This document shows positions 1 through 46,533 of a stretch of DNA of 46,533 nt, in pieces. Numbering within the stretch: position 1 is the first letter of the stretch; each line of letters begins with the position of its first letter. A program made the translations under genes and the position numbers. The DNA lies in the IMG/VR virus record IMGVR_UViG_3300045988_064709; one strand, 5' to 3'. Below the pieces are notes generated by a model that saw nothing but the letters and a program-made list of their open reading frames with translations, searched no databases and was not told the DNA's origin. This DNA is from a virus.

Positions 1-99
1 ATTTTTTTTTCAGCCCTTTATATTGTATAGCTGCCCTATTTGCGAAAAATCTTGATTTTCTTTTATATTTACACTTGACAAGTAAATGCAAATATGCTA
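1..99 (+). repeat. Terminal direct repeat copy 1, identical to 46435..46533
   Basis: Base-by-base comparison of both window ends gives 99/99 identity. This implies a circular or terminally redundant genome with a unique length of 46434 bp. Confidence 0.95.
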
Positions 100-3274: not shown

Positions 3275-4927
3275 ATGCACATGAATTATGAAAAACTCTC
3301 CGGCTCTATCCGAGCCGTGATCGACCGCCGACCGGGAGATAACGGGGCGTACAGCGACCTTTTTTCTCTATGCCGGGAGTGGGAAACCGAGGATTTCTCG
3401 GCGGCACATAAGGCGAACAAGGAGCTGCTGGCACTCTCCGCAGATCAGGTAGTCCGTGGCGGCGGGGCGAAGTTCTATGAACAGTGGCGGCGGTGTCTTC
3501 TCTTTGAAGCACCCCATGATTTTGACTCCTTCATGACCTATATTGAACTCGACCGCAAGCCGGAAAAGCGGTTCTATGCTCCCCGTAAGCACTATCTCAG
3601 ACCGATGGTGCAGGGGTTCCAAGATGTTCTGGACGGGAAGCTGCGCCTTTTGACGATCTCCATGCCGAAACGAGCGGGTAAGTCACAAACAGGTATCAAT
3701 TTTGTGAATATGCTCTCCGGGAAGTTCCCTGACCGCTCGACCCTGATGGAAGGGACAGGCGATGACCTTGTAAAGAGCTTCTACAATGGTTGTCTGGAAT
3801 ACCTGACAGTCCCTAACGAGTATCTATTCTATGATGTATTCCCGGACGCACGGCTGGTGCAGACCAACGCCGACACGAAGACGGTGAACCTGAAAAGCAA
3901 GTCCCGTTTCCCCACCATCATGTGTCGTTCCATTGACGCTCGACAGGTGGGCTTGTCCGAAGCCACTAATGTCCTCTACCTTGATGACTGTGTGGAAGGT
4001 CGTGAGGAAGCCAAGAACCGCCAGCGGCTTGATGACAAGTGGGAAGTGATCTCCGGCGATATTATGGGTCGTGCCATTGAAGGTACGCCGATGGTCTTTA
4101 CCGGTACTCGTTATTCCCTGTATGACCCCATCGGTCGTGTGCAGGAACACGCACAGCGGGAGGGCTGGGCTTGGAGAGCGATTGAGATACCCGCCCTCGA
4201 TCTCGTGACGGACGAGAGCAATTATGAATACGAGCGGGAGGGCAAAAAGGTTTTCACCACCGCCTACTTCCGGGAGCAACGGGAGCTTCTGAGCGCAGAG
4301 CAGTTTGAGAGCGAGTTCCAGCAACAACCCTTTGAAGCGAAGGGTCTGCTGTTCAACAAGGACGAGCTGAACTACTTCTTTGAGCTGCCGAAAGACCGTG
4401 ACCCGGATACTATCATCGCCGTTGGCGATACGGCGGAAAGCGGCTCTGACTCGACCTCTATGCCGGTGGCGAAGATTTACGGCAACGATGTGTATATCGT
4501 TGATGTGGTCTTTGATGACTCTCCCGCTGAGGTGACGAAGCCGGAATGTGCCAAGTGCCTGATCGAGAACAAGGTTGCTTCCGCCGTCTTTGAGTCCAAC
4601 AATGCCGGTCAGTATTATGCCAGAGATGTTGACCAGATCATTCGTGAGCGTGGGTACTCTGTTGGTATCCGCACGAAGCGCACGATCTCCAACAAGCAGA
4701 CCCGTATCGAGTTCGCTTCCGACAATATCAAGAAGAACTTCTACTTCAAGCACCCCTCCACCTACAAGCGGGGCAGTCAGTATTGGAACTTCATGAAGGA
4801 AGTGACCACCTACACTCGCTCCGGCAAGGTTCCGCACGATGACGCTCCTGACTCCCTCTCCCTGTTGGAGAACGAAATCCGTATGCTGTCCGGGGGCAAG
4901 GTTGAGGTTTTCAAACGGCCTTACTGA
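3275..4927 (+). CDS. terL: Terminase large subunit
   Basis: 550 aa. Walker A-like PKRAGKS, Walker B-like LYLDDCVEG, and a C-terminal nuclease region (IIAVGDTAESG..., HDDAPDSL). Lies immediately upstream of the portal gene. Confidence 0.85.
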   Translation: MHMNYEKLSGSIRAVIDRRPGDNGAYSDLFSLCREWETEDFSAAHKANKELLALSADQVVRGGGAKFYEQWRRCLLFEAPHDFDSFMTYIELDRKPEKRFYAPRKHYLRPMVQGFQDVLDGKLRLLTISMPKRAGKSQTGINFVNMLSGKFPDRSTLMEGTGDDLVKSFYNGCLEYLTVPNEYLFYDVFPDARLVQTNADTKTVNLKSKSRFPTIMCRSIDARQVGLSEATNVLYLDDCVEGREEAKNRQRLDDKWEVISGDIMGRAIEGTPMVFTGTRYSLYDPIGRVQEHAQREGWAWRAIEIPALDLVTDESNYEYEREGKKVFTTAYFREQRELLSAEQFESEFQQQPFEAKGLLFNKDELNYFFELPKDRDPDTIIAVGDTAESGSDSTSMPVAKIYGNDVYIVDVVFDDSPAEVTKPECAKCLIENKVASAVFESNNAGQYYARDVDQIIRERGYSVGIRTKRTISNKQTRIEFASDNIKKNFYFKHPSTYKRGSQYWNFMKEVTTYTRSGKVPHDDAPDSLSLLENEIRMLSGGKVEVFKRPY

Positions 4928-18041: not shown

Positions 18042-19187
18042 ATGAAAGATACTGTCATTAAGGGCAACGGTAAGTCCCGTTCTGTCAAGGCTCCTACCGA
18101 TATGCCTGCAACCTTCGAGGAATGGCGCACACAGCTTCTCGCCGGAACTGCCACCCTCGACATTGGTCTGAACGCCGCAGGCTGTGATGTGGTCGGCACA
18201 GCCATGAGCAAGGCAAATCTGCTGTCCGACACCACCAAGTCGGCACTGGAACTGAGCGGCAGCGACCCCACGGTGAATGACGCTCTGTATGCTCTGAGCC
18301 AGAAAGGTTCCCCCGCAGAGGTGCGTGTCATCGCTGATACAGGCTCGACCGTCACCATGAGCAGGGGCGGTAAAACCCTGACCGGTAAGGTTGCTTCGAC
18401 CGGCTATGCCACTCTGTACCCGACCGAGCTGGGTGACTGGACTATCGTGTTTACTTATAACGGTTCTCAGAAAACCAAGGTTTACACGCTGGAAGTCATC
18501 GGTATTGTGTATGTTTATCCCTTTGTGGTTGGCGCTACGCTGGAAGCTACCTCTTGGGATAACATCGCCGCTGTTTCCAAGTTCGGTCAGGCTCCGAACT
18601 ACTGGAAGGTCGGTGACAAGAAGAACATTACCGTCAACGGTGTGACCTATGCGGCACAGATCATCGGTTTTGACCATGACACTCTGACCACCGCAGACGG
18701 TAGCCGCACCAAGGCTGGTATCACCTTCCAGTTGGTCGATTGTTTGAACACGACCTATTCCATGAACGGCTCCAATACCAATGTGAACGGCTGGCGTGGT
18801 TCCACTATGCGTACCTCCACAATGGCAACACTGCTGAACCAGCTTTCCTCTGACCTGAAAAGTGTGTTGAAGTTCGTCAACAAAGTGACCAGCAAGGGCA
18901 ACAATCAGTCCGGTTTGGAAACCACTTCTGACAAGCTGTTCCTTCTGTCCGAGATCGAAGTTTTTGGTGCTACTCAGTATTCTTACGCCGGTGAGGGTAA
19001 GCAATACGAGTATTATACCGCAGGCAACAGCACCATTAAGAAGGTCAATGGTTCTGCGCACAGCTGGTGGGAGCGTTCTCCTATTTCCGGCAACACCTCC
19101 GACTTCTGTAGTGTGAACAGCAGCGGCACCGCCGACTATTACACCGCCAGCTACTCCTGTGGCGTGTCCTTCGGCTTCTGCGTTTAA
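18042..19187 (+). CDS. Tail fibre / receptor-binding protein, DGR target 1
   Basis: 381 aa. The C-terminus WWERSPISGNTSDFCSVNSSGTADYYTASYSCGVSFGFCV is encoded by VR1. Confidence 0.85.
   Translation: MKDTVIKGNGKSRSVKAPTDMPATFEEWRTQLLAGTATLDIGLNAAGCDVVGTAMSKANLLSDTTKSALELSGSDPTVNDALYALSQKGSPAEVRVIADTGSTVTMSRGGKTLTGKVASTGYATLYPTELGDWTIVFTYNGSQKTKVYTLEVIGIVYVYPFVVGATLEATSWDNIAAVSKFGQAPNYWKVGDKKNITVNGVTYAAQIIGFDHDTLTTADGSRTKAGITFQLVDCLNTTYSMNGSNTNVNGWRGSTMRTSTMATLLNQLSSDLKSVLKFVNKVTSKGNNQSGLETTSDKLFLLSEIEVFGATQYSYAGEGKQYEYYTAGNSTIKKVNGSAHSWWERSPISGNTSDFCSVNSSGTADYYTASYSCGVSFGFCV
19052..19181 (+). repeat. DGR variable repeat VR1
   Basis: Ungapped alignment to TR 19715..19844. In the body I count 18 mismatches, all at TR adenines. 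Confidence 0.9.
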
Positions 19188-19211
19188 TCCTCGGTTTCAT
19201 CAACACCAATC

Positions 19212-19229
19212 CCGCCCCGTCAGGGGCGG
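19212..19229 (+). promoter_or_regulatory. GC hairpin downstream of VR1 (CCGCCCC GTCA GGGGCGG)
   Basis: 7-bp perfect stem with a 4-nt loop. The 24-nt context AATCCCGCCCCGTCAGGGGCGGTG is repeated after VR2. Confidence 0.75.
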
Positions 19230-19249
19230 TGTAAGAAAGGAATGTTGGC

Positions 19250-19678
19250 GTGTCAGTCATCAAAGCTATGCGTGGCGAAAGCTCCATGCAGTTCATCGAA
19301 ACCGCCAGACGGTTAGAGCTTCACGCTTTCTCTGTCTGCACCAAGGCTCCTAAAAGATACGCACCTCTGCTGACAAACCGTATCTTCGAGCTGGCTTCCA
19401 CGGTTCACGAGGAAGTCCGAGCGGCGAACAACATCTACCCGCACAATCAGCATGAAGCGCAAATGCGGCGAGATCACCTGATTAACGCCAACATCGCCCT
19501 TCAAAATCTTAGCCCGAAGCTGACTTTGCTCTATGACGCTATTCTTCAAAACCCTGAAAAGTGTCCGTGGATTGACCACGCCATGAAGGAATTTGGAGAG
19601 TACATCACGGACGAAGCACAGCTTATCTCCAAGGTTCGGAAAGCTGACCACGAGAGGTATAAAGACCTCCCTGTGTGA
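19250..19678 (+). CDS. avd: DGR accessory variability determinant (Avd-like)
   Basis: About 140 aa, helical and basic, located between the target gene and the TR as in BPP-1. GTG at 19250 or ATG at 19268. Confidence 0.7.
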   Translation: MSVIKAMRGESSMQFIETARRLELHAFSVCTKAPKRYAPLLTNRIFELASTVHEEVRAANNIYPHNQHEAQMRRDHLINANIALQNLSPKLTLLYDAILQNPEKCPWIDHAMKEFGEYITDEAQLISKVRKADHERYKDLPV

Positions 19679-19714
19679 GTTTTTCATTGGGTCAAGCCCT
19701 GTAATTGTTACCGT

Positions 19715-19844
19715 TTCTGCGAACAACTGGTGGGAGCGTTCTCCTAATTCCGGCAACACCAACAACTTCTGTAATGTGAACAACAACGGCAACGCCAACA
19801 ATAACAACGCCAGCAACTCCAATGGCGTGTCCTTCGGACTCTGC
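19715..19844 (+). repeat. DGR template repeat (TR)
   Basis: AAC/AAT-rich. It would translate as NNWWERSPNSGNTNNFCNVNNNGNANNNNASNSNG. It serves as template for both VR1 and VR2. Confidence 0.9.
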
Positions 19845-20066
19845 AACTTCGCATAGGTCAGTCGTAGTAACCCCTTTGGGCGAAATCGGTACCTTTTGCA
19901 GAGGGAGGGCTTGTTCCCGGCTACCAAGCCAAAACACCCCGTCCGATGTAGTCAGCCGGACGCTTCTTGCATGGTGAGCGATTGTACGGTAGCTCATTTC
20001 ATGGCTGGTACTACAAGCAGTTAGAACCCGTACCCGACAATAAGACTGTACGGAGGGGAACATTTT
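19715..20066 (+). ncRNA. Putative DGR RNA (TR plus about 220-nt spacer upstream of the RT)
   Basis: No credible ORF. It lies between avd and the RT. In characterised DGRs the TR-spacer RNA primes cDNA synthesis. The boundaries here are inferred. Confidence 0.5.
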
Positions 20067-21215
20067 ATGACAAGTGAAGAACGGAGAGAAGCCCGTTATC
20101 AGCGCAGAAAAGCCAAGCGGGATGAAGCTCGTCTGCGGCGAAGCAAAGAATGTGGTGATTTCGATGAAGTCTTTTCGTTCAGACACCTTTACCTTTCCGG
20201 GAAGAAATGCTGTAAGGGTGTCTACTGGAAAAACTCAACTCAGCGGTATATCGGCAATATCATTCCGATCATCGCAAAGACCCATCGTGAACTTCAAAAC
20301 GGAACCTTCAAGCACCGTGGTTTTCACGCTTTCACCATCATGGAACGAGGGAAAAAGCGGTATATCCGATCAGTCCATATCACGGAACGAGCGGTTCAAA
20401 AGTGTCTGTGTGACTACTGCTTGGTTCCCATCTATTCGGCCTGTTTTATCTATGACAACTCAGCCAGTTTGAAACACCGAGGTATGGACTTCGCCCTGCG
20501 CCGTATGACCTGTTACCTTCAACGGCATTACAGGAAGTACGGTCTGGAAGGAGGGGTTCTGCTTTACGATTTTCACAGCTTCTTTGACTCAGCTCCACAT
20601 GAGCCGCTGTTCCGTGAAGCCGACCGCAGACTTCATGACCCGAAAATCAGAGAGCTTGCGAACAGCTTTGTTACAGACTTCGGTTCTGTGGGCTTGGGTC
20701 TTGGCAGTCAGGTGTCTCAGACAAACGCCCTCATGCTTCCCAATATGATCGACCACTATTTCAAAGAGGTCTGCCGTATCAAAGCCTATGAGCGATACAT
20801 GGACGATGGTGCGGCAATCAGCCCTGACATTGATGACCTGTATCTCTGTATGGACGGGTTGAAGATCATCTGCGAGAAGTGCGGTCTGGAACTGAACTTG
20901 AAGAAGACAAGGGTCATTCCTCTCAGAGATTATTACCGCTGGTTGAAAACGAGGTTCATCATCACACCGACCGGCAAGGTTGTTCGGAAGATGAACAGGG
21001 ACTCAACAAAAATCGTTCGACACAAGCTCAGGGCTTTCCGAGGAAAGCTCGACCGGGGCGAAATGACCTTGGCTGACATTCGGTGTTCCGTGGACTCCTA
21101 CAACGGTCACATGAAGCGAGGTCACAGCTTCAAGGTGCGGCAGCGCACCAATCAGTATTTCAAATCATTGTACGGGTTCTACCCGGACGAGAAAGGTTGG
21201 AAAAGCCATGTATAA
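20067..21215 (+). CDS. DGR reverse transcriptase
   Basis: 382 aa. Carries LGLGSQVSQ (the DGR-type LGxxxSQ motif 4) and RYMDDGA (YxDD). RBS GGAGGGG. Confidence 0.9.
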   Translation: MTSEERREARYQRRKAKRDEARLRRSKECGDFDEVFSFRHLYLSGKKCCKGVYWKNSTQRYIGNIIPIIAKTHRELQNGTFKHRGFHAFTIMERGKKRYIRSVHITERAVQKCLCDYCLVPIYSACFIYDNSASLKHRGMDFALRRMTCYLQRHYRKYGLEGGVLLYDFHSFFDSAPHEPLFREADRRLHDPKIRELANSFVTDFGSVGLGLGSQVSQTNALMLPNMIDHYFKEVCRIKAYERYMDDGAAISPDIDDLYLCMDGLKIICEKCGLELNLKKTRVIPLRDYYRWLKTRFIITPTGKVVRKMNRDSTKIVRHKLRAFRGKLDRGEMTLADIRCSVDSYNGHMKRGHSFKVRQRTNQYFKSLYGFYPDEKGWKSHV

Positions 21216-24007: not shown

Positions 24008-24043
24008 AAGACACTCCCTACCGATTAAGGTAAGGAGTGTCTT
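24008..24043. terminator. Bidirectional hairpin between convergent genes
   Basis: AAGACACTCC(CTACC) / (GGTAA)GGAGTGTCTT gives about 14 bp of stem with one mismatch, with A/T runs on both sides. It overlaps the integrase stop codon. Confidence 0.6.
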
Positions 24044-25686
24044 TTAGTTTGAACGAACACCGTTCCCCACACAATGTAGGGTTCGGATATGCGCTCAATG
24101 GTACACTCAGACTCCCCAAAATCGAACCCTGTCGCTTCTTCGGCGGCGGGGTTCTTTTCTACCCGGAAAGTCTTGGTTTTGCAAGAGGTTAGGTTATATG
24201 CGGTAGTGATTTTATATCCGTCAGGTTCGTCCCACACTGTAACGGAATTGACGAGCAAATCAATGAGCCGCCTGCGGAAGTCTTCGTCTTCGATATTCCC
24301 GTATTTGAACTGGCTCAACCAGAATACGATCTGGTCACGGTCAATTCGGTAGACGAATTTTTCCTCAGCTTTAATCTCTTTGTTGAGGGTCTTCTTTTCA
24401 TGTTCGAGCTGGACAAGTCGGTTCATCAATGTTTCGGAAGCAATACCCTTTTCAATGGCAGCGGTGATATTTGTGATTGACTTTTCGACCTCCGATAACT
24501 GAGCGGTCAACTGCGGAATGTGTGTGTCGTTTATTAAATCCCGTTCACTCTGCCGGATTGCCATGTCTGCAATTTCATCAATAAGTTGATCGGTCAAAAG
24601 GTTGAGAGCATCACGGGCTACTATCCCTTCGATATAATCTTTTTTCAAAGGTCGCTTGTCACACCCAAGTTTTCTCTTTTTCGTGTAGCAGGAATAGTAG
24701 TGGTAGACCTTGCCATGTCTACCGGCTCCGCTTTCACCATTCATAGAAGCCCCACAATGACCGCAGAACAGCTTTCCAGACAAGAGGTAATCTACCTTAG
24801 CCTTACCCCTTGCTGGGGCTGTAGCGGTCTTAGAAAGCCGCCGCTGTACCGTTTCAAACAGCTCCTTATCAATGATGGCGGGAATACCATTTTCAATGAC
24901 AATATCCTTGTAGGTATAAGTGCCGATATAGCGAGTATTACGGAACATGGCCTTAAAGCTACTGCGGTTGAACTCCGTGTTTTTGGCGGTCTTATATCCG
25001 GCAGAGTTAAACTTTCGGCAAATGCCAGCGACACTTTCACCGTTGGCATAAAGAGAGAACGCTTCCTGAACGATGTGGGCGGTGTCGGGGGCAACGACCA
25101 GTTTGTGATTTTCCACCTTGTACCCAAGGGGGATATGACCGCCTACACTGTGGCACTTCAAGGCGGACTCACGCATACCTCTTGTGACCTTCTGCGACAG
25201 CTCGGCGGAGAAAAACTCAGCCATACCCTCTAACACAGATTCCAAAATGATACTCTCAGGGCTGTCGGTAAGGTGTTCTGTGGCGGAGAGGACTTTCACG
25301 CCGTTCTTCCGCAGACGCATTTTCATAATTGCGCTATCGTTGCGGTTACGAGCAAAACGGTCGAGCTTCCAGACGATGACATATTCCCAATTCTGTTTTG
25401 CGCTGTCTGCAATCATTTCCATGAGGTGAACCCGCTTTTCCACATCTTTGCGAGCGGTCGTTGCTCGGTCAACATAGATTGCTACAATGCGGTAGTGGTT
25501 TGCTTTACAGAAGGCACGGCAGTCACGAAGCTGCCCTTCAATGGATTGGTCACTTTGGCCTGTGGAGCTATACCGAAGATAGAGAGCAACATCTTGATCG
25601 CCGTTGTAAAGCGTATATGGGTCTTCCTGAAATTGAGAGATTTCTTCCTCTGTCAGACAGGAAAGGTCGATTGGAAATTTTTTCAT
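24025..25686 (-). CDS. Large serine recombinase (integrase)
   Basis: 553 aa. Contains VALYLRYSSTGQ (catalytic Ser), a recombinase domain, the zinc ribbon CGHCG...YYSCYTKKRKLGC, and a C-terminal coiled coil. Confidence 0.9.
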   Translation of the reverse strand: MKKFPIDLSCLTEEEISQFQEDPYTLYNGDQDVALYLRYSSTGQSDQSIEGQLRDCRAFCKANHYRIVAIYVDRATTARKDVEKRVHLMEMIADSAKQNWEYVIVWKLDRFARNRNDSAIMKMRLRKNGVKVLSATEHLTDSPESIILESVLEGMAEFFSAELSQKVTRGMRESALKCHSVGGHIPLGYKVENHKLVVAPDTAHIVQEAFSLYANGESVAGICRKFNSAGYKTAKNTEFNRSSFKAMFRNTRYIGTYTYKDIVIENGIPAIIDKELFETVQRRLSKTATAPARGKAKVDYLLSGKLFCGHCGASMNGESGAGRHGKVYHYYSCYTKKRKLGCDKRPLKKDYIEGIVARDALNLLTDQLIDEIADMAIRQSERDLINDTHIPQLTAQLSEVEKSITNITAAIEKGIASETLMNRLVQLEHEKKTLNKEIKAEEKFVYRIDRDQIVFWLSQFKYGNIEDEDFRRRLIDLLVNSVTVWDEPDGYKITTAYNLTSCKTKTFRVEKNPAAEEATGFDFGESECTIERISEPYIVWGTVFVQTKRHSLP

Positions 25687-26321
25687 GCAAATCTCCTTTT
25701 TAGCTCCATGACTCTACCGACAAAGCGCAATCGTCCAATTTCAACACCGCCGAAAACACGGGGAGGATAGTGTGGGTTAAAAGAGCGAAGGGTCACAGTA
25801 TCTTCATCAATGCTGATTTTCTTAACAAATCCTTCTTCGTCATCAACAATGACAACCATAAGAGTATCTGTTTCGGGAGGTGTATCCTTTTTAACCAGCA
25901 CTAAATCGTGATCGTCTAAGACTGGCGACATACTATCTCCGTCAACTTGTAACCAGAAACAATCATCACAGTCATATTCGGGGTCAACTTGTTCATACCC
26001 CAATGCTTCTTGCTGAGCGATGACACCTTTTCCTGCGGACGCATGACCGAAAATAGGTCGCTTGCAATTCTTTTCATAAGGTTCGGTGGTTAAACCAACA
26101 GAGGACAAGTGAAAGAGAGGGTCGTCAGTTTCACCTTTCAAATACTCAGCCGTTGTTCCAAGATTGATAGCGAGAGTTTTCAAGTCTTCATCTGAAATCA
26201 TGCGGTCAGGCTTTTTATCTACATCGTTCAAATAATATTTGGGGCGGTCGATAAGTTTGCAAATATAGGTGACGCTTTTCCCTTGTTGTTTGGCTAAATC
26301 TCTAATACGACTTGTGTTCAT
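25683..26321 (-). CDS. CI/LexA-like repressor (HTH plus S24 peptidase domain)
   Basis: N-terminal HTH (IRDLAKQQGKSVTYICKLI). C-terminal GDSMSP and VKK form the Ser-Lys dyad. GAAGGAGG RBS before the ATG at 26321. ATGA overlap with int. Confidence 0.85.
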   Translation of the reverse strand: MNTSRIRDLAKQQGKSVTYICKLIDRPKYYLNDVDKKPDRMISDEDLKTLAINLGTTAEYLKGETDDPLFHLSSVGLTTEPYEKNCKRPIFGHASAGKGVIAQQEALGYEQVDPEYDCDDCFWLQVDGDSMSPVLDDHDLVLVKKDTPPETDTLMVVIVDDEEGFVKKISIDEDTVTLRSFNPHYPPRVFGGVEIGRLRFVGRVMELKRRFA

Positions 26322-26339
26322 AAATACCTCCTTCAAAAA

Positions 26340-28127: not shown

Positions 28128-28532
28128 ATGAATGTCAATCGTAAGGTTGGCACTGGCTTTGAAAGAGACTTATGCCTGAGCCTGTCGGGTTGTGGCTTTT
28201 GGGCGCACAATCTCACTCAGAACAGTCAAGGTCAGCCGTTCGATGTGATTGCGGCTCGAAACGGTATCAGCTATCCCATTGACTGTAAGGATTGTTCCAA
28301 GAACATTTTCAAGATGGAGCGTATCGAAGAAAACCAGTTTTCCGCTATGACGCTCTGGAAGGAAACCGGGAATGGAGAGGGCTGGTTTGCAATCAGGTTG
28401 ATAACTGGTGAAGTTCGATTTATCTCCTTCTCTACGCTTTTGGAATTGTCTGTTTTGCGAACCGTGCTGTCTGCCAACGATATTAGGCGATACGGTATCA
28501 CACTCGGAGAGTGGGTGTCCCAATGCAAGTGA
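28128..28532 (+). CDS. Holliday junction resolvase (Hjc/PD-(D/E)XK-like)
   Basis: 134 aa. The G.GFER....L...G, D+IA and DCK pattern is present. AAAGGAG RBS. Confidence 0.6.
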   Translation: MNVNRKVGTGFERDLCLSLSGCGFWAHNLTQNSQGQPFDVIAARNGISYPIDCKDCSKNIFKMERIEENQFSAMTLWKETGNGEGWFAIRLITGEVRFISFSTLLELSVLRTVLSANDIRRYGITLGEWVSQCK

Positions 28533-29923
28533 CTGTTGGCAATCAGCTTCGAATTGAAAATCCGTCTGAGCAGTTGCTTACATGGTGCAAGAAGCAACTT
28601 ATCCTTCCCAATCCTGAGTACGCCAAGAAAGTCCGTATGCACTTTTGGGTCGGCAACACCCCTGAGAAGTTGTATCTGTTTCAATGGGACGGTGACACAT
28701 TAGTTCTTCCCTATGGTTGTCTGAATGATGTGCTGGTGATGGACGATTGCAACATGAAGGTCAATCTTCCTACACCGACCGAGGTGGACTTCGGTTGCGC
28801 CATTCCGCTCTATGACTACCAAGTAGAAGCCAAGGAAGCACTGATAACTGCCTACTATGGTATTCTTCAAGCCCCTGCGGGGTGTGGTAAAACGCAGATC
28901 GGAATTGCTGTTGCGGCAGATACAGGTCGAAGGACACTCTGGCTGACCCATACACGGGATTTGCTCGTACAGAGTAAAAGCCGAGCGGAGCAGTACATGA
29001 GTCCTTCTCTGACTGGCACGATTACCGAAGGTAGGGTTCAAATCGGTAAGGCAATCACCTTCGCAACGGTGCAGACCATGTGCAACCTCAATCTGAGTCA
29101 ATACCGTGATGTTTGGGATTGTATCATCGTGGACGAGTGCCACCGTGTAGCCGGAACCCCGACCGCTATGACGCAGTTCTCAAAGGTGCTGAACGCTCTG
29201 GCAGCTCGGCACAAGTACGGCCTATCTGCTACGGTTCATCGAGCAGACGGTATGATTGCCGCCACCTACGCATTGCTGGGCGGGATTGCCTATCAAGTGC
29301 CGGAGGAAGCGGTGAAAGACAAGATCATGACCGTTAGCGTTCTCCCCCGTGCCACCCATCAAGGACTCAGCCGTGAGTTCTTGGACACGGACGGTACGAT
29401 CATCTATGCCAAGTTGGTCAATTTCCTCGCTGACCGTTATCCCCGAAACAATCTGATTGTCGCTGATCTTGTGGCAAACCGAGATCACTACAATCTCATT
29501 CTCTCTGACCGGCTGACGCATTTGGAAACTCTGATGAACAGGCTTCCGCCCGACCTGAGAAAACAGGCGGTCATGATTGATGGGAAGATGACCACGAAGA
29601 AAGCCAAAGCTCTCCGAGAGCAGGCCATTGAGGAAATGCGGCAGGGGCGCAAGCGGTATCTGTTCGCCACTTACTCTCTGGCGAAAGAGGGTCTGGATAT
29701 TCCTCGGCTCGACCGGCTGTACCTGACTACGCCGCAGAAAGACTACGCTGTAATAACTCAGAGCATTGGTCGTATCGCTCGTACTTTCGAGGGAAAGGGT
29801 GAACCCATCGCCTATGATTATGTGGACGATGGTATCCAGTATCTCGTGAGAAGTTACAAGAAGCGGTGTACCACCTACCGCAAGTGCGGTTGTAAATTCA
29901 TCGAACAGGAGGTGTCGAAGTGA
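28523..29923 (+). CDS. SF2 DEAD/DEAH-box helicase
   Basis: Motif I APAGCGKT, motif II VDECHR, motif III SAT, motif VI QSIGRIAR. Confidence 0.8.
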   Translation: MQVTVGNQLRIENPSEQLLTWCKKQLILPNPEYAKKVRMHFWVGNTPEKLYLFQWDGDTLVLPYGCLNDVLVMDDCNMKVNLPTPTEVDFGCAIPLYDYQVEAKEALITAYYGILQAPAGCGKTQIGIAVAADTGRRTLWLTHTRDLLVQSKSRAEQYMSPSLTGTITEGRVQIGKAITFATVQTMCNLNLSQYRDVWDCIIVDECHRVAGTPTAMTQFSKVLNALAARHKYGLSATVHRADGMIAATYALLGGIAYQVPEEAVKDKIMTVSVLPRATHQGLSREFLDTDGTIIYAKLVNFLADRYPRNNLIVADLVANRDHYNLILSDRLTHLETLMNRLPPDLRKQAVMIDGKMTTKKAKALREQAIEEMRQGRKRYLFATYSLAKEGLDIPRLDRLYLTTPQKDYAVITQSIGRIARTFEGKGEPIAYDYVDDGIQYLVRSYKKRCTTYRKCGCKFIEQEVSK

Positions 29924-30741
29924 AGTTAGGCAGTCTGTTTGATGGCAGCGGGACTTGTCCTCTTGCCGCTTCTGCGGTCGGTATTATTCCGGCATGGGCG
30001 AGTGAGATCGAGCCTTTCCCAAAAGCTGTCACACAGTCCCGTTTTCCCAAGATGGTTCACCTTGGCGATATTACCGAGATGAACGGCGCAGAAATTGAGC
30101 CGGTCGATGTTATCACCTTCGGCTCTCCGTGCCAAAACCTCTCGATTGCTGGGAATGGTAAGGGTCTTGCTGGTCAGGAGTCTTCTCTATTCTTTGAAGC
30201 AATCCGAGTTATTCAGGAAATGAGGTGTGCCACCAATGGGAGATTTCCTCAAATCGTCATTTGGGAAAATGTTTATGGAGCTTTTAGCTCGACACAGGGA
30301 GAAGACTTCCGAACAGTCATCGAAACTCTCTGGAAAATCTGCGAGGGAGACGATAGCGTTCCTCGATATGCGGAAGACAAGCAAGGACGGCAAAAATGGC
30401 CGCACACCGGATTTGTCTTGGGAGATCATTCCTCTATCGCTTGGAGAGGACTTGATGCACAAGGTTGGGGAGTTCCCCAAAGACGCAAGCGTGTCTTCGT
30501 TGTCCTCGATCTTGGAGGTCAATGTGCCGGACGGATACTATTTGAGCGTGAGGGCTTGCGAAGGGATTTTAAGAAGGTCGGGCGAACGGGGGAAACCGTT
30601 AGACCCACTTTTGAAACAAGCCCTGCTGAATACCATCGTGTTTATGCAGTCGAAAACCACGCTCAAGACAGCCGAGTGTCCCTCAGACCCGATAACACCG
30701 TCCAAACCCTCGCTGGACGAATGGGAACAGGGGGGGGGTAA
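29920..30741 (+). CDS. C5 methyltransferase N-terminal fragment (motifs I-VIII)
   Basis: LFDGSG (motif I), GSPCQNLS (IV), ENV (VI), QRRKRVF (VIII). It ends at a TAA directly after the G9 tract. Confidence 0.8.
   Translation: MKLGSLFDGSGTCPLAASAVGIIPAWASEIEPFPKAVTQSRFPKMVHLGDITEMNGAEIEPVDVITFGSPCQNLSIAGNGKGLAGQESSLFFEAIRVIQEMRCATNGRFPQIVIWENVYGAFSSTQGEDFRTVIETLWKICEGDDSVPRYAEDKQGRQKWPHTGFVLGDHSSIAWRGLDAQGWGVPQRRKRVFVVLDLGGQCAGRILFEREGLRRDFKKVGRTGETVRPTFETSPAEYHRVYAVENHAQDSRVSLRPDNTVQTLAGRMGTGGG
30730..30738 (+). repeat. Poly-G tract 1 (G9) followed by TAA
   Basis: Counted directly. A G8 tract would read GTGGGNVPLV in frame. Confidence 0.9.
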
Positions 30742-30841
30742 TGTCCCTTTAGTTCTTGTTCCATGCTTCGGACAGGCTTCCTATGATGAATATGCGCTCA
30801 CGGAACAAGCGGTTACGCTGAAAGCCACGGGCGGCAATTAT

Positions 30842-30851
30842 GGGGGGGGGG
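30842..30851 (+). repeat. Poly-G tract 2 (G10) followed by TAC
   Basis: Counted directly. G8 or G11 would read YGGGTETLVLEP in frame. Confidence 0.9.
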
Positions 30852-30908
30852 TACTGAGACATTGGTGTTAGAACCAATCGGAGCAGATTTTTATAATCAG
30901 GCTATTAC

Positions 30909-30916
30909 GGGGGGGG
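30909..30916 (+). repeat. Poly-G tract 3 (G8) followed by TAA
   Basis: Counted directly. The current length reads through as ITGGVTMTL. Confidence 0.9.
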
Positions 30917-31007
30917 TAACGATGACATTGGCTGCCGCCAGACCTGACCATCATCATCTTCCATGTGCGCTTATCCCGTACACCTTAAAAATCCGCTCTG
31001 GTTGTGA

Positions 31008-31015
31008 GGGGGGGG
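31008..31015 (+). repeat. Poly-G tract 4 (G8) followed by TAA
   Basis: Counted directly. A G9 tract would read CEGGGKGALIQEDKSATL in frame with the C-terminal fragment. Confidence 0.9.
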
Positions 31016-31025
31016 TAAGGGCGCT

Positions 31026-31334
31026 TTGATACAGGAAGATAAGAGTGCAACGCTCTCATGTAACAACGACCAGACTCTCTTTGTTCCCACACAGACCGAG
31101 AACGGTGAAGTCATTTATCTGGCTCGAAAGCTCACCCCTACTGAGTGTGCTTCCCTTCAAGGGTTCGAGAAAGATTGGTGTGCGCTGGTTCCTCACAAGG
31201 ACTCTGCGGAGTACAAGATGTGGGGAAATGGCATGGCTTTTCCCTGTATGCTCTACATCATGGAGGGTGTTCAGGAAGTCCTTGCCGAAAGGTATCTGGA
31301 TAATCTCTTTGGAGGTGATACCACTGAACCTTGA
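31026..31334 (+). CDS. C5 methyltransferase C-terminal fragment (motifs IX-X)
   Basis: RKLTPTECASLQGF (motif IX) and WGNGMAFP (motif X). It has no ATG of its own; the frame opens just inside G tract 4. Confidence 0.7.
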   Translation: MIQEDKSATLSCNNDQTLFVPTQTENGEVIYLARKLTPTECASLQGFEKDWCALVPHKDSAEYKMWGNGMAFPCMLYIMEGVQEVLAERYLDNLFGGDTTEP

Positions 31335-33168
31335 ACCTTTCATTTTTGACTGCGAGGTGTTTGCCTACGATTGGCTTTTTGTCTTCAAGAACAAGGTCAC
31401 GGGGGAATACACCGAGATTTGGAATGACAATGAAGCGGTCGAACAATTCATGACCCAAGAACCCCTGTTGGCAGGGTTCAACAATAAGCACTATGACCAA
31501 TTCATTCTGAAAGCGGTTCTTTCAGGCTTCACGCCGGAGGAAATCAAGGCGGTCAACGATTTTATCATCGTTGGTGGTCACGAGGGCTGGGAGTACGCCC
31601 CTCTCCGTGACTGCGGGATTTTCTTTGACCAATATGACCTGATGGACGATTGCCAGATGGGGTTGTCCTTGAAAGCAATCGAAGCGCACCTCGGAATGGA
31701 TATTCGTGAAACCACCGTTCCGTTCAACATCGACCGCCCTCTGACTGAGGACGAGAAGCGAGAGGTCGAGTTCTACTGCCGCCATGATGTTGACGCAACC
31801 GACAGGCTGGACGATCTTCGTCAAGGCTACCTGTCCAGTAAGCTCACGCTGGGTCGTGAAAAGGGGCTGTATCCTGCAAAAGCCCTCTACATGACCAACG
31901 CCAAGCTGACCGCTGCTTACCTTGATGCAGAGCAAAAGCCGCACTATGACGAGCGGGAATATCAGTATCCGCCGAAGCTGCTTCGTCAGTACATTCCGCA
32001 GGAAGTGTTCGACTTTTTTGAACGGTTGAAGGATAAGAGTATTCCTGACGAAGTGGTGTTCAAAGAAAAGCTCGATTTAATGGTAGGCGGCTGTCCTTGC
32101 ACCATCGCCTACGGTGGTATTCACGGGGCTATTCCATGTTACCGAGAGGAAGCCACGGAAACCCGCTCTATCCGCAACAAAGATGTTGCAAGTTACTACC
32201 CGCACCAGATGACCTTGAACGGTTATTGTAGCCGAAACATTCCCTCTCCCGATGTGTATGCCGCCACCATTGAGCGGCGAGTTAACGCAAAGAGAGCCGG
32301 GGACAAGGCTACGGCGAACGTTTTGAAGCTGGTGCTGAACACCACCTACGGAGCCATGCTGAACCGCTACAACGATCTGTATGACCCGCTCATGGGACGC
32401 TCGGTCTGTATCTCAGGCCAGTTGCAGTTGCTTGAAATGGCGGAACATCTTGTTCAGGACTGTCCTACCTTGAAGATCATTCAGCTCAACACCGATGGTA
32501 TCATGGTTAGCCTTGATGACTGTGATGTGCCTATGTATCAGGAAATCACGCAGGAGTGGCAGGACAGAACCGGCTTTGAGTTAGAGGAAGACCTTATCAA
32601 GATGATCTGTCAGAAAGATGTGAACAATTATGTCGAGGTTCCCTTTGAGGGCGACCCCAAAATCAAGGGCGGCGTTCTCGTTCGTGGAATTGCCCCGGCA
32701 GGAGCGTTCAACATCAACAACAACGCCTGCGTGGTTGCCAAGGCCGTCAAGGATTATCTGGCCTACGGTATCCCGGTCGAAGACACCATCATGAGCTGCG
32801 ACCGCCTGCTGGACTTCCAGTTGGTCGCCAAGGCCGGAAGTAAATACGGTGATGCTCTCCATGAGGTAGACGGTCAGATGGAGGTCGTACAGAAGGTCAA
32901 CCGGGTATATGCCACGGAAGACCATCGGTACGGAACCCTCTACAAAATACACCTCGGCACTGGCAATCCCGTCAAGATTGCTGGACTCCCCGCAAAATGT
33001 GTCGTAGACAACGACAATCACCTGACGATTGATGTGGTTGACCGTGACTGGTATATTCGGCTGGCACGGCGTTATGTCCGAGATTTCCTCGGAGAGAAGC
33101 CGCCCAAGCGAAATACCCGCAGAGTCAATTCTATCAAGAAAAAATTATTAGAAATGTTGGAGGTATAA
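31315..33168 (+). CDS. Family B DNA polymerase with a 3'-5' exonuclease domain
   Basis: Exo motifs FDCEV, NNKHYD and YCRHDVDAT. Pol motifs DVASYYPH (A), KLVLNTTYGA (B) and LNTDGI (C). The start is uncertain (TTG at 31309 or GTG at 31315, after GGAGG). Confidence 0.8.
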   Translation: MIPLNLEPFIFDCEVFAYDWLFVFKNKVTGEYTEIWNDNEAVEQFMTQEPLLAGFNNKHYDQFILKAVLSGFTPEEIKAVNDFIIVGGHEGWEYAPLRDCGIFFDQYDLMDDCQMGLSLKAIEAHLGMDIRETTVPFNIDRPLTEDEKREVEFYCRHDVDATDRLDDLRQGYLSSKLTLGREKGLYPAKALYMTNAKLTAAYLDAEQKPHYDEREYQYPPKLLRQYIPQEVFDFFERLKDKSIPDEVVFKEKLDLMVGGCPCTIAYGGIHGAIPCYREEATETRSIRNKDVASYYPHQMTLNGYCSRNIPSPDVYAATIERRVNAKRAGDKATANVLKLVLNTTYGAMLNRYNDLYDPLMGRSVCISGQLQLLEMAEHLVQDCPTLKIIQLNTDGIMVSLDDCDVPMYQEITQEWQDRTGFELEEDLIKMICQKDVNNYVEVPFEGDPKIKGGVLVRGIAPAGAFNINNNACVVAKAVKDYLAYGIPVEDTIMSCDRLLDFQLVAKAGSKYGDALHEVDGQMEVVQKVNRVYATEDHRYGTLYKIHLGTGNPVKIAGLPAKCVVDNDNHLTIDVVDRDWYIRLARRYVRDFLGEKPPKRNTRRVNSIKKKLLEMLEV

Positions 33169-37732: not shown

Positions 37733-38107
37733 ATGTATATTCCAACGGTTTCTTTCGATTTCGATGGCGTAATTCATTCCTACCGAAGCGGGTGGAAGGG
37801 TGCCGCTGTTATCCCCGACCCTCCCGTAGAAGGGATTAAAGAGGTCATTGAACAACTCATAAGCGATGGTTTATGTGTGGTCATCTGTTCTTCTCGTGCG
37901 GAGTCCTTTGAAGGACAGGCGGCGATTGCTGAATGGCTGAAACACTACGGGTTCCCGATGGTGCAAATTCAAGCGAGAAAAGTTCCTTCCATCGTTCATG
38001 TTGATGACCGCACAATCTGTTTTGATGGCAGAGCAAACCACCTCCACGAACAGATTATCAACTTCAAACCTTGGTATGAAAGGGAGTCTGAAAGTGAAAA
38101 TCATTGA
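37733..38107 (+). CDS. HAD-like phosphatase / deoxyribonucleotidase-like protein
   Basis: N-terminal FDFDGV matches the DxDG motif, and there is a late VDDR. Confidence 0.5.
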   Translation: MYIPTVSFDFDGVIHSYRSGWKGAAVIPDPPVEGIKEVIEQLISDGLCVVICSSRAESFEGQAAIAEWLKHYGFPMVQIQARKVPSIVHVDDRTICFDGRANHLHEQIINFKPWYERESESENH

Positions 38108-38717
38108 ACCTTCTGTGGAGCTTATCAACGCTCCCGATTATAAGACCCTTCTGACCACCATCGAAGCCGCAGGGCGCACTTGCTACAAGTCCGAGGATAA
38201 AATTACGGACGGAAGCGCAGAGAAGTTCGTCCGGGGTATCATCAAGCGGGGCCACGAGGCTGTCATTGAGCATGGCTCTCTCACTGTCCGCTTCATCTGC
38301 GACCGGGGCGTGAGCCATGAGATCGTCCGTCACCGTCTGGCGGCGTTCTGTCAGGAGTCCACTCGGTACTGCAATTACGGTAAGGAGGGCTTCGGCGGCG
38401 AAATTACCGTCATTCGTCCCTCAACCTTCGCCAAGACCGACTCGACCTACCACATCTGGAAACGGTCGTGTGAACACGCTGAGGTCGCCTACTTTGATCT
38501 GCTGAACGAGGGTTGTACCCCGCAGGAAGCCCGATCTGTCCTTCCGAACAGCCTTAAAACCGAGGTGGTCATGACCGCCGACCTCAGAGAATGGCGGCAT
38601 TTCTGCCGTATGCGTTGCCCCGTAGCGGCTCACCCTGATATGCGGGTCGTTGCCAATATGCTCCTGACCCTGCTGAAACAGACATACCCCGTCTTCTTCG
38701 AGGACATTGAAGTATGA
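38094..38717 (+). CDS. thyX: Flavin-dependent thymidylate synthase
   Basis: RHRLAAFCQESTRY matches the ThyX signature RHR..S.QE.S.RY. GTG start at 38094 after AGGGAG. Confidence 0.8.
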   Translation: MKIIEPSVELINAPDYKTLLTTIEAAGRTCYKSEDKITDGSAEKFVRGIIKRGHEAVIEHGSLTVRFICDRGVSHEIVRHRLAAFCQESTRYCNYGKEGFGGEITVIRPSTFAKTDSTYHIWKRSCEHAEVAYFDLLNEGCTPQEARSVLPNSLKTEVVMTADLREWRHFCRMRCPVAAHPDMRVVANMLLTLLKQTYPVFFEDIEV

Positions 38718-43968: not shown

Positions 43969-44143
43969 GAAAAAGAACCTCCGCCGTATTTCCATCGTAG
44001 TCACGGCACAGACCAAGGGCAACCTTGAACGGCTGGCGGCGGTCTGCGGGTACTCGGAGATCGGTCGGGTGGTTGACAAGCTCACCCGTGAAAAGATGAT
44101 CTCCCTCCATGACTTTGAAAGAAAGGAGAAGCACTATGAATGA
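43958..44143 (+). CDS. Possible ribbon-helix-helix protein
   Basis: 61 aa. RRISIVVTAQTKGNLERLAA fits a beta strand followed by a helix. Confidence 0.3.
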   Translation: MKTEKKNLRRISIVVTAQTKGNLERLAAVCGYSEIGRVVDKLTREKMISLHDFERKEKHYE

Positions 44144-44789
44144 TGTAATGGAGCAAATCAAAACGCTTTCTGCCACCTTGGACGAGGAAACCACCCGCTT
44201 TCACCCTACTGGCAGACTGCTGTTGCTGGGTTCCTACGAGAGCGTATTTCTGAAAGCGGTCAAGCGCAAGGCTGATCTGTTGGGCATTGACTGTGACCTC
44301 ACTCAATACCCTTGCCCTCCGTACAAGGCCGTGGTGGTGGACAGAGAAACCGTCCCGTCTGACATTAAGCTCACCGCCGAGGTTGACATTGACCATTCCT
44401 ACTCACAGGGAATGTCATCGGTGTCTCAGGCGACTTTGGCGCTCCTGCTGGCATTGGACTTGGTTCATGCTAAGGACATTACCATTGTAGGTCGGGGTCA
44501 CGCCGTTCAGAACTTGGCAAAATACCTCACCCTCGGTAACGCAACTGTGACGGTGGCGCACTCCAAAACCAAGAGTCTCTTGCAGGCCACGATGAACCGT
44601 GATGTGGTGATCTACGCTACGCCGACTATCACGAAGGACATTTCCTACAACACCCGTGATCTGGTCATCGACCTCGGCAACAGCGTTCCCCACCCTGACC
44701 GCTTCAACTGTCCCTATGTAAACAGGATTGGTCAGCTCACCGTGAGCGTGTTGCTCAACCGCTTTGCGAGAAAGGAGCATAGGACATGA
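44136..44789 (+). CDS. FolD-like methylenetetrahydrofolate dehydrogenase/cyclohydrolase homologue (shortened)
   Basis: ITIVGRGHAVQNLAKYL..GNATVTVAHSKT, LVIDLG and IGQLTVSVLL align by eye to E. coli FolD (VVIGASNIVGRPM..TVTHRFT, IVIDVG, VGPMTVATLI). Confidence 0.55.
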   Translation: MNDVMEQIKTLSATLDEETTRFHPTGRLLLLGSYESVFLKAVKRKADLLGIDCDLTQYPCPPYKAVVVDRETVPSDIKLTAEVDIDHSYSQGMSSVSQATLALLLALDLVHAKDITIVGRGHAVQNLAKYLTLGNATVTVAHSKTKSLLQATMNRDVVIYATPTITKDISYNTRDLVIDLGNSVPHPDRFNCPYVNRIGQLTVSVLLNRFARKEHRT

Positions 44790-46434: not shown

Positions 46435-46533
46435 ATTTTTTTTTCAGCCCTTTATATTGTATAGCTGCCCTATTTGCGAAAAATCTTGATTTTCTTTTAT
46501 ATTTACACTTGACAAGTAAATGCAAATATGCTA
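46435..46533 (+). repeat. Terminal direct repeat copy 2, identical to 1..99
   Basis: 99/99 identity. Confidence 0.95.

Follow-up and report, generated by a model that had tools for sequence, protein, structure and literature searches.

Four hypermutable G tracts in the recognition region of a gut phage C5 methyltransferase: a likely contingency locus for ON/OFF switching of DNA methylation

Is a gene whose reading frame is broken three times in the assembled sequence a victim of assembly, a relic in decay, or a switch? The question is raised by the phage genome recorded in IMG/VR as IMGVR_UViG_3300045988_064709 (46,533 nucleotides (nt); this whole stretch of DNA, as analysed, is called the window), in which an orphan C5 cytosine DNA methyltransferase gene carries four long G tracts (T1 to T4) in its target-recognition region. 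We consider it very likely that these tracts make up a slipped-strand contingency locus, in which four hypermutable repeats give ON/OFF switching of phage DNA methylation. Below, a tract that is out of frame, or a gene that contains one, is called OFF.

The gene product is classed as a C5 cytosine DNA methyltransferase, with predicted enzyme activity, by its match to PF00145 and by motifs that occur in order (LFDGSG, GSPCQ, WENV, QRRKRVF, RKLTPTECASLQGF and WGNG, at 29935-31244) and that align with M.HhaI and M.HaeIII. The motif positions and the Pfam match place all four tracts between motifs VIII and IX, and a direct count of the runs gives G9, G10, G8 and G8 (Table 1); on both points the initial annotation of this sequence proved exact. 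As assembled, the reading frame runs 1 -> 2 -> 1 -> 1 -> 0, that is, it is broken at T1, T2 and T4 and kept at T3, so that the earlier description of a gene split at three of its four tracts also stands on frame reconstruction. A single open reading frame (ORF) requires 8 or 11 G's in each of T1, T2 and T3 and 6, 9 or 12 in T4; with lengths of 8/8/8/9, the product is reconstructed at 470 amino acids (aa). Among the 2,401 length combinations that arise from 6-12 G's per tract, 24 give one ORF, each of them with every tract in frame, which rules out compensating shifts between tracts with an altered peptide in between. Tract length inside the ORF sets the reading frame, as it does in a contingency locus. 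The cluster stands alone in the genome: GGGGGGGGTA occurs four times inside 287 nt, always on the + strand, where 0.05 occurrences are expected (dinucleotide-preserving shuffles; 0/100 reach 4), and no other G/C run of at least 7 is found in the 46,533-nt window, the longest remaining G run being a single G6.

The consequences of a wrong length are immediate. Wrong-frame stops lie on average 3.6 codons after the tracts (range 0-10), where the background over the whole gene is 30 (P about 1e-4), and any out-of-frame length truncates the protein within 0-10 codons, ahead of motifs IX and X. These stops also bear on the dinucleotide TA that the initial annotation reported after each tract. It is present at all four in the window, but the observation does not extend to relatives, in which T1 may read Gn-AAT or Gn-CAAT (L008-L013) and T4 GAA-Gn-AAG (the P0127 lineage). 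Because sister lineages do without the T, the TA is not an obligatory part of the element, and immediate wrong-frame stops account for the TA(A) context better than a conserved DNA motif would. A G-quadruplex or other strand-specific DNA signal was set aside as well, since the runs match Gly codons, vary in length, do not keep one position across the family and in some cases are runs of C when read on the coding strand.

Tract length varies widely among relatives. Unbiased loci were fetched with only the 270 residues upstream of T1, to avoid favouring intact genes; the nine unselected genomes are the window, L001-L006, L081 and L082. A second set was made up of loci for two truncated proteins, both OFF at T1. 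In independent assemblies of close relatives, the four tracts sit at homologous positions and differ in length (7-10 G's in T1, 7-10 in T2, 6-9 in T3 and 7-10 in T4), with rarer extremes in a T1 of 11 inferred from a protein, a T2 G11 allele in P0081 and a T3 G5 allele in P0132. Only one of the nine complete close-relative genomes sampled irrespective of tract state is fully in frame (L001, 8/8/8/9). Out-of-frame lengths are often the most frequent in the assemblies: at T2, 15 loci have G9 and 10 have G8, and at T1, 5/9 unselected loci have G9. Alleles "locked" by a G-to-A interruption exist and are rare; the T3 of L081 is interrupted and reads GGGAGGGG. Across 23 complete closely related genes, every insertion or deletion falls within the four tracts, and no stops are left once the frame is repaired. 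Pairs separated by 3-4 substitutions in about 3.8 kb (about 0.1% divergence) differ at 2/3 unselected tracts, and all four lengths are identical in one pair with 0 substitutions and in one with 4. Tract lengths change far faster than substitutions accumulate. Tuning of loop length by in-frame steps of +/-3 G found little support, such alleles being seen once each among 140 intact proteins.

At the protein level, both ON and OFF forms are present in nature. Independent public assemblies contribute more than 100 intact relatives of ~470 aa, with 94-98% identity to the repaired protein. A search of protein collections with the N-terminal part returned many truncated forms, the ends of which match specific out-of-frame lengths: 273, 276 and 277 aa correspond to G9, G7 and G10 in T1; 311, 315 and 316 aa to G9, G7 and G10 in T2; 331 and 341 aa to G7 and G9 in T3; and 365 and 368 aa to G10 and G8 in T4. 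About 1,560 sequences fall into the eight clusters whose representatives are truncated, and among the 120 cluster members listed, 113 end where out-of-frame lengths of T1-T4 predict and 4 are intact. The window's own 273-aa call is itself present in the public collection (P0215, JGI/IMG). OFF forms outnumber ON forms by roughly 5-10 to 1, a rough ratio, as cluster listings are not random samples. In OFF loci, gene callers also give C-terminal PF00145 fragments of 102-164 aa, and in most assemblies annotation pipelines now split the gene into two to four pieces.

Could the DNA always be in frame, and the apparent frameshifts come from G-homopolymer miscalling during sequencing or assembly? Of the alternatives, this one, raised already in the initial annotation, survives best. 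Homopolymers are error-prone, tract states carry little phylogenetic signal beyond the two identical pairs, and purifying selection on the repaired gene (see below) would be equally expected of a gene that is always intact. Contig ends also cluster after the tracts: of 15 contigs with their end downstream of the gene start, 6 (L246-L250, L085) break off 8-61 nt past a G tract. Such breaks could mean poor reads; they also fit mixed lengths within samples or unresolved assembly bubbles, without proving it. Miscalls, however, would scatter about the true in-frame value, unlike the lengths seen at T2 and T1, and to our knowledge consensus errors in more than half of the assemblies are not expected at G8-G10 in short-read data. 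Identical truncated proteins come up again and again, in tens of contigs that differ in sample and pipeline; strains that are nearly identical can agree in all four lengths, and the G9, C10, G8 and G7 runs of other lineages are identical across independent metagenomes (about eight comparisons, 0 differences). Nor do exact tract-to-tract deletions and tracts interrupted by A look like homopolymer miscalls. Taken with these observations, an artefact appears improbable.

The frame-repaired gene is under strong purifying selection. With synonymous differences (pS) at about 0.10, the ratio of non-synonymous to synonymous differences (pN/pS) stands at 0.09 ahead of T1 and at 0.03 beyond it (0.028 in the C-terminal part), even though 22 of the 23 consensus sequences are OFF. 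The homopolymers are kept as well. GGG is the rarest Gly codon of the phage (12.9%), and GGG-GGG is used in 0/35 Gly-Gly pairs elsewhere; between clades, four-fold sites are 43% different, yet only 1 of 13 in-tract codons differs. Codons conserved against both codon usage and such synonymous divergence indicate that the runs are maintained. They are not dictated by the protein, because L007 spells the same peptides with mixed Gly codons. The initial annotation had held that orthologues with mixed GGN codons would speak against a switch; these do exist, but as a minority (L007, T1 of L014 and L015, and a few interrupted alleles), and most orthologues keep the homopolymers. What the minority indicates is that the homopolymers are not forced by the protein, rather than that they are artefacts.

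These data decide against the next alternative, non-adaptive decay, in which the methyltransferase would be dispensable and the G runs would be weak spots of repeated and irreversible inactivation. The predominance of OFF alleles, roughly 9/10 in the unselected DNA sample, agrees with decay, as do the many genomes that are OFF at several tracts and the near-random frames at unselected tracts. Against it, the genes remain free of stops and of indels outside the tracts, and pN/pS stays low past the first frameshift despite the OFF state, which excludes simple decay. Homopolymers would not be expected to persist against codon usage in a decaying gene, intact forms are far commoner than the 1-2% expected from independent random frames, and stop codons are placed just after the tracts. 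Decay thus seems highly improbable, and we conclude that the tracts are real, selectively maintained, hypermutable repeats, neither assembly errors nor signs of gene decay.

The conflict between strong purifying selection and mostly OFF DNA would also be reconciled by recoding at the level of expression, if the frame were restored on the G runs, whatever the DNA length, by slippage of RNA polymerase or by a ribosomal frameshift. Long homopolymers can indeed cause transcriptional slippage; known bacterial slippage, however, occurs mostly at A/T runs. The offsets to be corrected vary in sign and size between genomes (+1, +2, -1, -2), up to four corrections would be needed per molecule, no single programmed shift fits, and the wrong-frame stops follow within 0-10 codons of the tracts. 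A programmed ribosomal frameshift site, with a fixed shift of one sign and a constant DNA length, was rejected on the same variation between genomes at four sites. We give recoding very little credence. Finally, a fixed two- or multi-subunit enzyme like M.AquI, with fragments that assemble into an active methyltransferase, can hardly be right: split C5 enzymes can be active (M.AquI, fragment complementation) and C-terminal PF00145 fragments are called in OFF loci, but the break points vary by genome, intact single chains are common, the fragments have no conserved start sites, and T4 in the window cuts the recognition loop aligned with M.HhaI 235-252, so that this suggestion of the initial annotation finds no support.

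Its proposal of slipped-strand ON/OFF contingency, on the other hand, is supported by homologous tracts of differing length, by indels confined to the tracts, by purifying selection and by homopolymers kept against codon usage. In such a switch, replicative strand slippage would add or remove G's and turn the gene ON and OFF reversibly; the truncated enzyme would be inactive, and the gene would be ON only with all four tracts in frame. Phage and prophage populations would then be mixtures, mostly OFF with a minority ON. Because the gene lies in an early lytic, replication operon, an ON phage would methylate the DNA of its progeny. Methylated DNA may be shielded from cognate restriction enzymes and exposed to methylation-dependent (Type IV) restriction, with the reverse for OFF phages, and the switch could hedge bets across hosts with unpredictable defences. 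The operon is controlled by a repressor, and expression of the methyltransferase in lysogens is for that reason doubtful, as is, in consequence, the initial annotation's label of phasevarion, a regulon under phase variation.

Several observations weigh against this interpretation. Where loci were chosen only as OFF at T1, 19/50 of the remaining tracts (38%) are in frame, which is close to random. In many genomes two to four tracts are OFF at once, and several slippage events or recombination would be needed to bring these back to ON. In other lineages, G9 and C10 runs are unchanged over 1.2% divergence, so hypermutability is either not uniform or, in those lineages, masked by selection. Reversibility, moreover, is something that we infer from the selection on the gene and from finding ON and OFF forms side by side, with lengths read from assemblies, and the bet-hedging rationale is likewise deduced. 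The pattern of multiple OFF tracts does fit a gene that is unselected in lysogeny and selected only during spread, although this is speculation. If the switch operates as we propose, phages of this kind would exist as standing mixtures of methylated and unmethylated genomes, with effects on host range, on the way the phages escape restriction-modification and Type IV restriction, and on how phage methylation is interpreted in metagenomic host-linking.

Why should the tracts lie where they do? Residues 364-380 of the repaired protein (GGKGALIQEDKSATLS) align with M.HhaI 235-252 (GGQGERIYSTRGIAITLS), which we take, from the HhaI structure, to hold the Gly-rich DNA-recognition loop and the conserved TL dipeptide. 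By this match T4 encodes Gly residues of the canonical recognition loop, and it would be expected to sever that loop when out of frame. T1-T3 encode similar Gly loops in upstream modules, likewise with TL dipeptides; the variable region of ~200 aa contains 4-5 TL-containing modules, only the last of which aligns with the HhaI recognition loop. Structure prediction of an intact relative from a shallow 23-sequence alignment was unusable, with a mean pLDDT (predicted local distance difference test) of 27 and a pTM (predicted template modelling score) of 0.23.

The tracts double as short direct repeats at which whole recognition modules are deleted in frame. Deletions of 111 bp between T1 and T2 (L261 and L262, gene 1501-2802), of 165 bp between T2 and T4 (L263, gene 1501-2748) and of 66 bp between T2 and T3 (L264, gene 1501-2847) all keep the frame, and each leaves one G run at the junction, as checked in the DNA. 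Collapse of repeats by the assembler is an unlikely origin, because the shared sequence is presumably shorter than assembler k-mers. In other relatives, modules are swapped or added between T1 and T4. It is tempting to see the four tracts as a combinatorial device, which by exact in-frame deletion of modules, and possibly by their exchange, would vary target recognition as well as ON/OFF state; we regard this as a tentative and rather unlikely extension of the switch. Were it true, a widespread temperate phage of the human gut would vary the recognition of its methyltransferase besides a receptor-binding protein diversified by its diversity-generating retroelement (DGR), which is described below.

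The genome that carries this gene is circularly closed at 46,434 nt, with an exact terminal overlap of 99 nt (window 1-99 = 46435-46533). It belongs to a temperate tailed phage, the window encoding terminase, portal, major head protein and tape measure in addition to a lysogeny module (24025..26336, - strand) that is divergent from the operon carrying the methyltransferase. This rightward early operon includes genes for DUF6273, Hjc, helicase, methyltransferase, DNA polymerase, Erf, YqaJ exonuclease, ThyX and primase. The overlap of the helicase stop with the methyltransferase start places both in one tightly packed early operon. At the other end, the polymerase start (TTG at 31282) overlaps the final 53 nt of the methyltransferase gene (31282-31334), and premature termination in the OFF state might disturb translation of the polymerase through lost coupling. 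No endonuclease gene adjoins the methyltransferase, its neighbours being the helicase and the DNA polymerase, and we call it an orphan for this reason. In L243 (1-423), an IS110-family transposase gene (PF01548/PF02371) stands in place of the DUF6273 gene, upstream of the Hjc-helicase-methyltransferase block.

Table 1. Coordinates in the window of the methyltransferase gene, its tracts and motifs, and other features.
Feature	Position	Strand	Remarks
Orphan C5 cytosine DNA methyltransferase gene	29920..31334	+	PF00145, E=4e-38; frameshifted as assembled
N-terminal fragment as assembled	29920..30741	+	273 aa; ends at TAA directly 3' of T1
Motif I	29935-29952		N-terminal fragment; motifs I, IV, VI and VIII in one frame
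Motif IV	30121-30135		N-terminal fragment
Motif VI	30262-30273		N-terminal fragment
Motif VIII	30478-30498		N-terminal fragment
T1	30730..30738	+	G9, OFF; G8/G11 in frame; encodes GTGGGN
T2	30842..30851	+	G10, OFF; G8/G11 in frame; encodes YGGGTE
T3	30909..30916	+	G8, in frame; encodes ITGGVT
T4	31008..31015	+	G8, OFF; G9 in frame; Gly residues of recognition loop CEGGGKGALIQEDKSATL
C-terminal part	31017..31334	+	third frame; rest of recognition loop and TL dipeptide at 31017-31088
Motif IX	31125-31166	+	C-terminal part
Motif X	31221-31244	+	C-terminal part; followed by the stop
Helicase gene	28511..29923	+	stop overlaps methyltransferase start (GTGA, 29920-29923)
Phage DNA polymerase gene	31282..33168	+	PHROG 1252, E=2e-141; 628 aa call in relatives
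Large serine recombinase	24025-25686	-	Pfam PF00239/PF07508/PF13408
S24/LexA-type repressor	25683-26336	-	Pfam PF00717
DGR template repeat	19715-19844
DGR variable repeat	19052-19181		3' end of ORF 18042-19187
DGR reverse transcriptase gene	20067-21215

The host is probably a member of the Clostridia. A host search among species-representative genomes gave a top match of just 55% identity, and matches among annotated phages were distant relatives or unannotated human-faecal contigs only. Human-faecal phages of Oscillospirales, Ruminococcus, Faecalibacterium and Clostridium carry distant relatives of the gene. The prophage is also present in contigs longer than 200 kb, those that encode P0159 and P0188. 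Two further features of the genome can be recorded. A DGR occupies 18042-21215; its repeats are 85% identical, 18 of the 19 mismatches replace a template A by another base, and the ORF in which the variable repeat lies probably encodes a receptor-binding or tail protein. The phage also has genes for ThyX (PF02511) and for a protein with a tetrahydrofolate dehydrogenase/cyclohydrolase NAD(P)-binding domain (PF02882), at 37998-38717 and 44109-44789 respectively, and with these it may supply its own thymidylate and folate metabolism.

Repeats are not confined to the close relatives. In the wider family (218 distinct loci), 63 G/C runs of at least 8 occur in 351 kb of methyltransferase genes compared with 5 in 851 kb of flanking sequence, and in distant members they lie at different positions. 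Other repeat types are present too: the methyltransferase gene of L014 has two (GA)10/(AG)10 repeats (3719-3738 and 3989-4008), and that of L018 has (AC)12 at 3792-3815 plus a G9. The family therefore seems to use several kinds of contingency repeat, and the enrichment across it suggests a phenomenon general among phages of gut Firmicutes.

How does this locus compare with known systems? Phase-variable methyltransferases are well known in bacterial pathogens. In those that vary by simple sequence repeats (the Type III mod phasevarions, and enzymes with homopolymers or dinucleotide repeats in Helicobacter, Campylobacter and Neisseria), a repeat inside the ORF slips to give ON and OFF states while the repeat is kept and the gene remains under purifying selection, as here. 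The present gene differs in being phage-borne, orphan and part of a lytic early operon, and in having four homopolymers, not one repeat, in the target-recognition region of a C5 enzyme. The multispecific C5 methyltransferases of Bacillus phages (SPR, phi3T, rho11s) carry tandem TL modules in the long variable stretch that separates motif VIII from motif IX, and variants gain, lose or swap modules; the same arrangement, with modules deleted or swapped in relatives, is found here, where multispecificity is putative. For the Bacillus phage enzymes, homopolymers are not known to drive the exchange of modules. If the combinatorial reading of the tracts were correct, the locus would be a homopolymer-driven analogue of the specificity shuffling of Type I hsdS. 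M.AquI, a fixed two-gene C5 enzyme, is broken in the same region between motifs VIII and IX, but in the gene studied here the frameshifts are variable and intact forms coexist with them.

Among phages, poly-G contingency tracts have been recognised only recently and in few cases. The closest parallel is Bordetella phage BPP-1 (NC_005357 = L265), in which a C8 at 29922-29929 (G8 on the coding strand) in bbp30/bpm is the sole long G/C run of the genome; bpm is annotated as an adenine methylase and lies beside the cI/cro region. According to a recent preprint (bioRxiv 10.1101/2025.10.21.683753, citing Liu et al. 2004), the poly-G of the bpm methylase had been noted and was not followed further. 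Both phages are temperate, carry a poly-G methyltransferase gene next to the immunity region and possess a DGR, although they are unrelated; in place of a single G8 in an adenine methylase, the present system has four tracts in a C5 enzyme, deletions from tract to tract and population data from assemblies that number in the hundreds. In Campylobacter Fletchervirus, receptor-binding genes likewise carry hypermutable poly-G tracts (Sorensen et al. 2021, Cell Rep), and T2/T4 have contingency loci of their own (bioRxiv 10.1101/2025.10.21.683753). These share with our locus phage homopolymers of 7-11 G and, on the reading proposed here, ON/OFF subpopulations as bet-hedging, but those phages are virulent, infect Proteobacteria and carry the repeats in receptor-binding genes and others, whereas here DNA modification is affected in a temperate phage of the human gut. 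A four-tract C5 methyltransferase switch in a phage was not found described in the literature searched. Thus, poly-G contingency in phages and phase-variable methyltransferases were both known already, and what is new is the placing of four tracts in a C5 recognition region, in a gut temperate phage, with evidence at population scale and with deletion of modules. The logic of phase variation familiar from bacterial pathogens would, in this case, act on the DNA modification of a temperate phage itself, one found repeatedly, in hundreds of metagenome assemblies from the human gut.

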